NCBI RefSeq assembly: GCF_018977255.1
Contig: NW_024704742.1
Coordinates: 122,018,001-122,082,000 of the forward strand
Direction: 5' to 3'
Origin: Callorhinchus milii
Taxonomy: Eukaryota
Length of the DNA stretch: 64,000 nt
The first letter of the stretch is position 1, and each line of letters starts with the position of its first letter. The notes beneath the pieces are model-generated. The model made no database searches and had not been told where the DNA came from. It saw nothing but the letters and a program-made list of their open reading frames with translations. Position numbers and translations under genes: made by a program. This document shows, in pieces, positions 3,415 through 4,927 of the stretch.

Positions 3415-3790
3415 GGTTGTGGGTTCATACCCCATTGTCAGGACTTTGACCTCACCTAGTCTAGGCTGACACTCATCTTCAATGCTGGTGGTGTGCTACA
3501 TTGTTGGAAGTTACTGTCCTTCAGGTGAAATGTTAAGCTAAGGTCCGTCTGTCTGTTCATGCAGGATGTGAAAGATCTCATGGCATTATTGAATAAGAAA
3601 AGAGAGTTTCTGCCAGCATCCTGAGCAACAACCCCCGGGTATAATTAGTTGTTTACTTCATGACTGTGCACAAATTGGCTGCTGGGTTCTCCTACAAAAT
3701 ATATAGTCACAACATTGTACAGCATTTCCTATGAAGCGCTTCGAGGCATCCTTCTGGTGTCAAAGACACTATATCAAATGCAAGGTTTTT
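3415..3790 (+). mobile_element. Older Deu-domain SINE (SacSINE1/AmnSINE1-like)
   Basis: GCTACATTGTTGGAAG...CAGGATGTGAAAGATCTCATGGCATTATT...GTGCACAAATTGGCTGCTG core with an L2-like tail. Confidence 0.75.
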
Positions 3791-4072
3791 TTTATTAAAA
3801 CATGCCTATTGTTACTTTCTTGCAAGTCAGTAAAGTTGTCTCGCTCTATCCATTATTATTTTGGAAACCTATTGTATCTTGCCCCCTTTAACCTCCTCAA
3901 CTTCAGTGAAAGTATAAATTTCTCAAGTATCAGTGACTTTCTGACCTACTCTACCCTTTCTGTAATGAAGGAAGATGAGCCTATAGCTTGCTTTTGTTTT
4001 GCATTATACTTATTTATGGGGCAATTGAGAGAAATTTGCTTGCTATCACCTCCACACTTGCAAGTACCTTGC

Positions 4073-4409
4073 ATGGCGGATGTGCTGTAGAAAGTCGAAA
4101 GAGTTCTCCAAATGTCTACCCAGTCATTAATTGGTGAGTGTATTCTGAGCATCAACAGAAGTCTATGAGGACATTGAAACAACATACCCCGGTTTCCGGG
4201 AGAAGCAGGGGAATTCAGAAGACTATATCCGCCAACAGTTAAATAGAAGCTAATGTTTCCATAGAATCCCATTGAGAAGTGCCATCGAATTGTATCATTT
4301 TTGGATGGCCGATGTGACCTTTAACTCCATGTGCTGGGATTCTATTATGAAAGGTTCCATTGCGAAAGATTGGCTCATTACTGCGGAAATGGTTGCTGAA
4401 GATGCTTAA
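4073..4409 (+). pseudogene. Disrupted, divergent forkhead (Fox)-domain-like coding relic
   Basis: Manual translation gives MADVL*KVERVLQMSTQSLIGECILS (4073-4150), a frameshift, then STEVYEDIETTYPGFREKQGNSEDYIRQQLNRS*CFHRIPLRSAIELYHFWMADVTFNSMCWDSIMKGSI. The second block aligns without gaps to the Fox consensus [38 protein letters not shown]. Stops at 4088, 4251 and 4407. Confidence 0.6.
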
Positions 4410-4618
4410 CTGATCTGCGAGCATGTTTACAGCACCACAGCTACCGGGAAAGGGAGATGTAACAATACTTCATTCATTTGCCTCCAAATACACAATCACT
4501 ATACTTTACAGGAAATCCTGCAAAGCACTTTGAGACAATGCGCTTTTCTACAACGTGTTAAGGTGCTATGGCAAAAGTAAGCATTATTATCCTTATTTAT
4601 TTTAATCCTTATCATGTC

Positions 4619-4927
4619 GGAGTTCTGTAGCTCAGTGGTTAGAGCACTCGCTTTGCAAGTGAGAGACCTGAGTTCAATTCCAGGCAGGTCAGGGTGAAAC
4701 CTTGGGCAAGTTTCCTTACTCCACACGCCTAATAATAATCCCTCCAAAACCAAAAACAATAATAAATTGGTCATTTTCAATCTACGACTGTTTGCGGGAC
4801 ATTGCTGTGCGCAATTGGCTGCCGCGTTCGCCCACAAATATAGTCAATTCACTTTACAGTGTGTTCTGTGAAGCGCTTTGGGACGTCCTCCCGACGTGAA
4901 AAGCGCTATATCAAATGCAAGGATTAA
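4619..4927 (+). mobile_element. Young full-length tRNA(Ala-like)-Deu-L2 SINE, short subtype
   Basis: The head GGAGTTCTGTAGCTCAGTGGTTAGAGCACTCGCTTTGCAAGTGAGAGACCTGAGTTCAATTCC has a TGC anticodon-like loop. Near-identical to the copies at 46335-46667 and 56777-57103. Confidence 0.93.

Follow-up and report, generated by a model that had tools for sequence, protein, structure and literature searches.

Transcription factor genes have given rise to families of processed pseudogenes and retrogenes, for example the human FOXO and FOXD4-like copies. In forkhead (Fox) domains, helix 3 is the recognition helix; its motif, N-x-x-R-H-x-x-S, includes contacts with DNA bases. Here we describe the relic of a forkhead domain in a 64,000-nucleotide (nt) stretch of the Callorhinchus milii genome (hereafter the window; contig NW_024704742.1, here C1, positions 122,018,001 to 122,082,000, forward strand). 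An earlier note on this DNA, made from the letters alone, had proposed a highly diverged forkhead relic at window positions 4073..4409. The relic belongs to a dispersed family and is not a lone gene. Our verdict is that it is a real but ordinary relic of a pseudogene, left by a Fox lineage of many copies that is extinct and undescribed; full-text literature searching found no description of the family in print. We hold it somewhat probable that this dead forkhead copy is one of at least 18 that derive from a small, intronless, diverged FoxQ2-like retrogene, which multiplied, was kept by selection and became extinct, and that the copy has no function now.

As in processed pseudogene families, the copies are dispersed, intronless and single, are built on a transcript-sized unit and are all disabled. 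Unlike such families, they have no intact parent of the same lineage, carry a signal of purifying selection among copies and show no detectable poly(A) tails or target-site duplications; they are also very old, with approximately 45% pairwise difference. Another described system that they resemble is FoxQ2. According to PMC8494292, FOXQ2 of bony vertebrates sits between PIAS4 and ZBTB7A. PMC12828049 describes three FoxQ2 paralogues, of which FoxQ2I is reported as lost and FoxQ2III as retained in cartilaginous fishes. The FoxQ2I type is likewise a small Fox protein, whereas the family described here has at least 18 copies, all of them dead. The FoxQ2I synteny is also absent: the window copy is on C1 upstream of a PDE4D-like gene, and the PIAS-linked Fox locus of this genome is on contig 21 (C21).

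A decayed forkhead domain in the window

Two plus-strand reading frames carry the relic. Frame A (window 4091-4168) reads KVERVLQMSTQSLIGECILSINRSL and frame B (window 4149-4250) reads ASTEVYEDIETTYPGFREKQGNSEDYIRQQLNRS, followed by an in-frame TAA; the stretch after that stop (4254-4406) reads CFHRIPLRSAIELYHFWMADVTFNSMCWDSIMKGSIAKDWLITAEMVAEDA. Past the TAA, frame B continues as CFHRIPLRSAIELYHFWMADVTFNSMCWDSIMKGSI.. and runs to a second TAA at 4407-4409. Both frames, the frameshift between them and the TAA at 4251-4253 are present as the earlier note claimed.

When frame B was read through the TAA (as X) and compared with Pfam, Forkhead was the sole family matched (E = 0.0032, 18 bits), with residues 4-56 aligned to positions 27-81 of the 88-position profile. 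The curated cut-off of Pfam Forkhead (PF00250) is 27 bits, and the window copy alone is under it. The other four window peptide pieces matched no Pfam family. For a peptide chosen from six frames of 64 kb, the Pfam match alone is not convincing. On a control profile made only from 16 intact Fox genes of the same genome, the window peptide scored 19.6 bits, and the best of 2000 shuffles scored 7.1. A second profile was made from the paralogues, with the window sequence left out; here the peptide scored 76.3 bits against a best of 9.6 in 2000 shuffles. Across six read-through frames of the whole window, the Fox profile gave a single positive match, at 4155-4334 (8.4 bits; the next scored -0.1).

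The best paralogue (L005) matched Pfam Forkhead well above the cut-off (E = 8.2e-14, 51.9 bits, profile positions 2-81 of 88), and among six other copies Forkhead was the best family in four and nothing was matched in two. A profile of the family matched 43 distinct chain sequences among solved structures, nearly all of them named Fox domains, led by FOXG1 (1.3e-13, 54.9 bits), FOXL2 (2e-11, 47.8 bits) and FOXD3/Genesis (45.2 bits). An AlphaFold2 model of the best copy, made from a 15-row alignment, was all-helical and too poor for fold comparison (predicted local distance difference test score 69.7, predicted template modeling score 0.38). Judged from sequence comparison, the forkhead origin of the relic is shown by transitive homology, because the window copy matches its paralogues and the best paralogue passes the Pfam Forkhead cut-off. 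The identity proposed in the earlier note is upheld on this ground, and a reader of raw sequence can evidently recover a domain that has decayed below the Pfam threshold.

Chance resemblance to a forkhead domain might be argued from the window peptide alone, which is below the Pfam cut-off and whose E of 0.003 is weak once all frames of the 64 kb are counted. The paralogue-profile score of 76.3 bits, with no shuffle above 9.6, the sole positive site in the six-frame scan and the DNA-level homology to copies that pass Pfam leave this idea a negligible probability. We regard it as refuted by the Pfam-passing paralogue, the shuffle controls and the DNA-profile match described below.

A family of dispersed dead copies

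The window DNA is single copy at the level of BLAST. With the window peptide as query, a protein-level search of the genome recovered stop-carrying relatives on four contigs (best, L003, E = 5e-9). The best-preserved copy, L005, is at C1:82.06 Mb, 40 Mb from the window; as a query it gave 43 matches among 53 candidates, true Fox genes included. A third own-genome protein query added no new family member. Eighteen loci of 10 kb each were taken for comparison. A search by nhmmer with the 10-kb locus of the best copy (L044) matched 15 of the 17 other loci (E from 3e-39 to 1e-3), and a family DNA profile recovered all 18, including two outside its training (L045, 1.6e-20; L055, 4e-15), while matching 0 of 10 true Fox gene loci tested. 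On 20 further candidates, the same profile gave two weak extra members. The family thus has at least 18 copies, perhaps 20, the counts from genome searches being lower bounds.

The copies are singletons on six contigs and never stand in tandem. No copy is free of in-frame stops within the forkhead box, and frameshifting indels are present in 15 of the 18, some of the small indels among copies possibly being alignment noise. The codon of the conserved Trp is TAG or TGA in five copies, TTG in four and TGG in three, every variant one step from TGG. The majority residues of helix 3 among the 18 copies are, in order, N (7), C (9), I (11), C (7; R only in the window copy), Q (10), Q (9), L (13) and S (12).

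The search for intact paralogues that the earlier note recommended accordingly produced many copies and no intact one, own-genome searches included. Neither an intact member nor a close living relative was found by a profile search of 1.84 billion representative proteins (2521 matches at E <= 0.001). Single-domain matches in this library reach a plateau at 55-60 bits, the level of generic Fox proteins, and the top ranks are taken by proteins with two to eight forkhead repeats, whose scores add up. A word-indexed protein search with a 15-row alignment of the family returned nothing at near lengths or at longer ones; it needs exact 5-residue words and is weak evidence.

The multi-forkhead proteins at the top of the library search (P0002-P0007, P0009, P0010 and P0017) are eukaryotic and have two to eight tandem forkhead domains. 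P0002 has eight near-identical repeats of ~110 residues; P0003, P0006, P0007 and P0010 have C2H2 zinc fingers at the end, and P0009 also has an apparently transposase-like C-terminal part. They could be real proteins or gene models that fuse tandem genes.

The family copies are unevenly distributed: 19 of 20 are on contigs C1-C5, which make up 514 of 992 Mb (52%; binomial p ~4e-5), and intact Fox genes, unlike these copies, are also spread over many small contigs. The excess points either to an insertion bias or to better survival of old neutral DNA on large chromosomes.

The unit of homology measures ~1.08 kb in the best copy (L044 4315-5400). In order, it has a ~430-bp leader without a reading frame (seen in five copies), an ATG site, ~27 codons, the forkhead box and a tail of ~55 codons with an acidic block, SEEIAxSAAED. 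At the presumed start site, four of the eight copies aligned there have an ATG with A at -3. The unit holds an intronless open reading frame (ORF) of ~180 codons, and the copies read straight through the box, in agreement with the proposal that the gene was intronless. For most copies, alignment is possible only in and near the box. Beyond the unit, no collinear homology was seen within ±5 kb, where 430 of 6998 tblastn matches fell within ±400 nt of register, approximately the chance level. Shared upstream blocks outside the unit were rejected as homology and are younger interspersed repeats; the idea that the upstream leader is a high-copy repeat was likewise rejected, the leader being single copy by BLAST.

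Dispersed, single, dead copies with a selection signal between them (see below) are the pattern of an extinct transposon family. The forkhead ORF might then have served a transposon or virus as its DNA-binding gene, with the copies as insertions of that element; the long stem of the family in the tree suggests a fast-evolving source, and the presence of 19 of 20 copies on 52% of the assembly could be read in the same way. We consider this improbable. The unit is only ~1.1 kb long with one ORF of ~180 codons, and the loci have nothing else in common within ±5 kb. Pfam searches of 124 ORFs of at least 100 amino acids from the 18 ten-kb loci found no transposase, integrase or capsid; they found reverse-transcriptase pieces in five loci, whose inconsistent distance and strand mark them as background long interspersed elements (LINEs), and one C2 exon. 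No terminal inverted or direct repeats were seen at the unit ends in the two copies examined, and a single-protein scan gave no relative on a viral contig, which is weak evidence because the scan relies on exact 8-residue words and has low sensitivity. The inspection of flanks put forward in the earlier note thus showed no transposon or viral gene linked to the unit. Of the three origins offered there, the lineage-specific Fox family and the retrocopy stand, and probably both apply; for mobile or viral cargo no support was found.

The C2 exon is at L049:5414-5731 (+). It is a host-gene exon (Pfam C2, 3.6e-14) within ~400 nt of another family copy, and that copy is therefore beside or inside a gene.

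Signs of selection before decay, and age of the family

Identity between copies in the box was 0.597, 0.585 and 0.504 at codon positions 1, 2 and 3 (91 columns per position), with position 3 differing from positions 1 and 2 (Mann-Whitney p = 2.7e-4). The excess divergence at position 3 persists at A- and T-majority sites and weakly at C-majority sites. By the Nei-Gojobori method, with stop-bearing codons skipped, the proportions of synonymous (pS) and nonsynonymous (pN) differences were 0.61 and 0.38, and pN was lower than pS in 115 of 117 pairs. The ratio dN/dS among copies, a calculation that had been suggested for this DNA, is ~0.4 after Jukes-Cantor correction. No codon periodicity was seen outside the box.

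The greater divergence of third positions indicates that part of the divergence accumulated under purifying selection. The genes that accumulated it would have been functional at the time, whether these were the copies or a source that went on evolving. At the level of the family, the position-3 excess and the low pN bear out the view that the sequence diverged under constraint before it was disabled. The restriction of alignable sequence to the box in most copies fits a box held by selection while its flanks drifted.

A pairwise difference of ~45% corresponds to ~0.7 substitutions per site (Jukes-Cantor). At any plausible vertebrate rate this would make the family of the order of 10^8 years old.

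Possible relationship to FoxQ2

A tree of 74 forkhead domains groups all 15 family rows in one clade (Shimodaira-Hasegawa-like approximate likelihood ratio test, 100) on a long stem of 2.49 changes per column; three of the 18 copies, with fewer than 55 codons filled, were left out. Branching inside the clade is not resolved, and the end branches measure 0.5-1.5. The clade itself is part of an open polytomy in which FoxQ2-like rows also stand.

The family profile, confined to the first half of the box, gave its highest score among the Fox genes of the genome to a FoxQ2I-type exon of contig 21 (36.4 bits), followed by FoxG1 (28.9), FoxL2 (26.2) and the rest (at most 24). The likeness to the FoxQ2I type in this half consists of ..LIG.AI.. 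and ..KLLV(C/S)(D/E)IY.(W/Y)I..(N/T)YP(Y/H)F.., then K..NW(R/K)N; the family majority residues N-(W inferred)-R/K-N are in common with DKNWRN of FoxQ2. A teleost protein named forkhead box Q2 (P0029, XP_034035079.1) is within the top 40 of the 2521 library matches. We infer that FoxQ2I is the closest class that can be named for the family, as a candidate class.

FoxG1 and FoxL2, the canonical intronless Fox genes in this comparison, gave the family profile its highest whole-domain scores among solved structures and score below the FoxQ2I-type exon over the first half of the box. Their loci in this genome are intact single genes that the family DNA profile does not match. These classes matter because the copies could have arisen by dispersed duplication of DNA, with no RNA step, and decayed later; the source would then be a natively intronless Fox gene, specific to the lineage, from another class (FoxG1/FoxL2-like or without a living member). 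Such an origin seems rather unlikely to us, with evidence on both sides. FOXG1 is first among solved structures by the whole-domain profile (54.9 bits), FoxG1-like proteins tie with FoxQ2-like proteins in the large library, an approximately unbiased (AU) test does not reject a clade of the family with FoxG1, no poly(A) tails were seen, and the ~430 bp upstream of the presumed ATG in five copies could be a promoter and not a 5' untranslated region. DNA-level duplication, however, normally carries varying flanks, and here any two loci have only the ~1.1-kb unit in common and none of its flanks; the copies stand singly, never in tandem, over six contigs, and the first half of the box is nearest to an intron-bearing FoxQ2I-type gene.

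That gene is at C21:4021800-4023900 (L077), where positions 985-1113 and 1833-2004 encode it. It reads ..KPAQSYIALISMSIVSSKEKKLLVCDIYQWIRNTYPYFKNK, then a 719-nt GT..AG phase-0 intron, then DKNGRNRIRHNFSLNKCF.. and, in another frame, GRSDNGKGHFWAIHPANYEDF... The intron lies inside the forkhead box (FKNK|DKN). The change of frame comes from 4 nt where teleost FOXQ2 has three residues, and a Gly stands at the conserved Trp. The gene looks disabled in the assembly, where an assembly error is possible. A PIAS-type zf-MIZ exon at C21:4,005,124 is 17.5 kb from the forkhead exon at C21:4,022,790. The locus looks like a disabled relic of the FoxQ2I that PMC12828049 reports as lost in cartilaginous fishes. 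Together, the family and the broken contig-21 gene bear on that published loss (PMC12828049) and would let its timing and manner be studied in related genomes.

Origin of the copies

The family copies are contiguous at the place where the contig-21 FoxQ2I-type gene has its 719-nt intron; the contig-21 gene differs from all family copies in having an intron in the box. If the FoxQ2I type is the parent, the copies are processed, RNA-mediated ones, and we infer that copying went through RNA (retroposition). In the account that we favor, a single retrogene would have arisen from a FoxQ2I-type source and diverged fast; it would then have been copied again to many places, and its lineage would have been held for a time by purifying selection before becoming extinct. 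The strong difference from FoxQ2I that the copies have in common, expressed in their long stem, makes a single diverging retrogene that was later recopied the likeliest course. A more ambitious version of this history, tentative and on the doubtful side, is that a FoxQ2-derived retrogene subfamily with a rewired helix 3 (His and Asn to Gln) once occupied at least 18 working loci under purifying selection, all since lost, and can still be read because this genome changes slowly. Either way, the family adds a short chapter to the history of Fox genes: a lineage of many copies, now extinct, whose recognition helix is unusual.

Several observations weigh against the retrogene account. A parental Fox gene that was itself natively without introns would undo the intron argument. 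No poly(A) tail was found at the 3' ends of five copies and no target-site duplication around two; neither would be expected to survive, because the copies differ pairwise by ~45%. The 3' ends of detectable homology are as variable as the 5' ends, unlike in simple 5'-truncated copies made by LINEs. Likeness to FoxQ2 does not extend through the domain: the second half of the box is uninformative as to Fox class, the family wing is ..FHRIP.. where FoxQ2 has ..KAGRS.NGKGHFW.. (KAGRS.NGKGHFWAIHP in the FoxQ2I type), and helix 3 is N-S-V-R-H-N-L-S in FoxQ2 and N-C-I-(C/R)-Q-Q-L-S in the family majority. AU tests reject neither the family with FoxQ2-like references (log-likelihood +38.5) nor the family with FoxG1-like rows (+34.0), the gains being over a quick free tree. 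Since both constrained trees are above the quick tree, the latter was poorly optimized and its placement of the family has no weight. As for selection, the copy pairs in the codon-position test are not independent, G-majority sites have no position-3 excess, and transition bias alone lowers neutral pN/pS below 1. A star-like tree combined with a selection signal also requires either selection on the copies themselves or a tree that is not resolved.

Layout of the window copy

The whole detectable relic spans 4049..4456 (+) and is one copy of the ~1.1-kb family unit, corresponding to DNA-profile positions 466-900. It was delimited by nhmmer with the best copy (E ~1e-15) and with the family DNA profile (L059 4772-5179; window position = L059 position - 723), and it extends beyond the 4073..4409 first proposed. 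The window copy lacks the upstream leader and a preserved start-codon site. From the DNA alignment of copies, a short N-terminal leader remnant, between the presumed start codon of the family and the forkhead box, occupies 4049..4111 (+). The helix 1 remnant in frame A, ..QMSTQSLIGECILS, lies at 4091..4150 (+) and is the counterpart of EKPEKTYVALIGEAIKKS in the best copy.

Alignment to the 17 other copies places two deletions at 4144..4155 (+), of 9 nt after 4144 and 11 nt after 4154. They take out the loop between helix 1 and helix 2 and move the frame from A to B; the deletion of ~20 nt that had been postulated for this loop is therefore real. Helix 2, the turn and the recognition helix 3 follow in frame B at 4149..4250 (+) as STEVYEDIETTYPGFREKQGNSEDYIRQQLNRS, placed by the Pfam Forkhead alignment and by column counts across copies. 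Helix 3 reads D-Y-I-R-Q-Q-L-N, which departs from the recognition motif N-x-x-R-H-x-x-S. As the earlier note stated, the recognition residues are all replaced (W>S, N>D, S>Y, H>Q and N>Q); the family-wide majority changes are S>C, H>Q and N>Q, and W>S and N>D are private to the window copy.

The in-frame TAA at 4251..4253 (+) is codon 60, where eight of the 18 copies have Ser (TCA/TCC). With this stop and the 20-nt deletion, the window copy is not an open reading frame. A beta-strand and wing remnant, CFHRIPLRSAIELYHFWMADVTFNSMCWD, occupies 4254..4340 (+), and a C-terminal tail remnant that includes the acidic block and the second TAA (4407-4409) occupies 4341..4456 (+). The block, ITAEMVAEDA at 4377-4406, corresponds to the SEEIAxSAAED block of the family.

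Genomic setting

Long 5' introns of PDE4D are known in mammals. A PDE4D-like gene is present on the same strand at C1:122360200-122407186 (+) (L080), 278-325 kb downstream of the window. Exons for the PDE4 upstream conserved regions were found at C1:122,360,200 and C1:122,387,149, followed by catalytic exons at ~122.40 Mb; the best human match of the catalytic exon is PDE4D (128 bits versus 118 for 4A and 116 for 4B). From the end of the window (C1:122,082,000) it is at least 278 kb downstream to the first conserved PDE4D-like exon detected, and no PDE4D-like exon was found upstream of the window. The placement inside a PDE4D intron made in the earlier note is plausible, as a position within a long 5' intron.

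This setting is all that could be brought forward for the idea that the relic still works, for instance as an enhancer in the PDE4D-like locus or as part of a non-coding RNA there; nothing else supports it. The window copy is as decayed as the other 17 (mean pS 0.68 and pN 0.38 against them) and has private deletions, which makes continued function very improbable. The window copy by itself is a dead pseudogene with no likely role, and a present function is likely absent.

The description of the relic as repeat-free sequence between short interspersed elements (SINEs) is accurate, with repeats on both sides. Those in common with other loci are at ~3659-3797 and ~4475-4597, both older copies, and at 4619-4926. 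The last of these is a tRNA-Ala-derived SINE with its tRNA-like head at window 4621-4692; next to a further member of the family (L007) stands a SINE that matches it at 94.8% identity over 310 nt.

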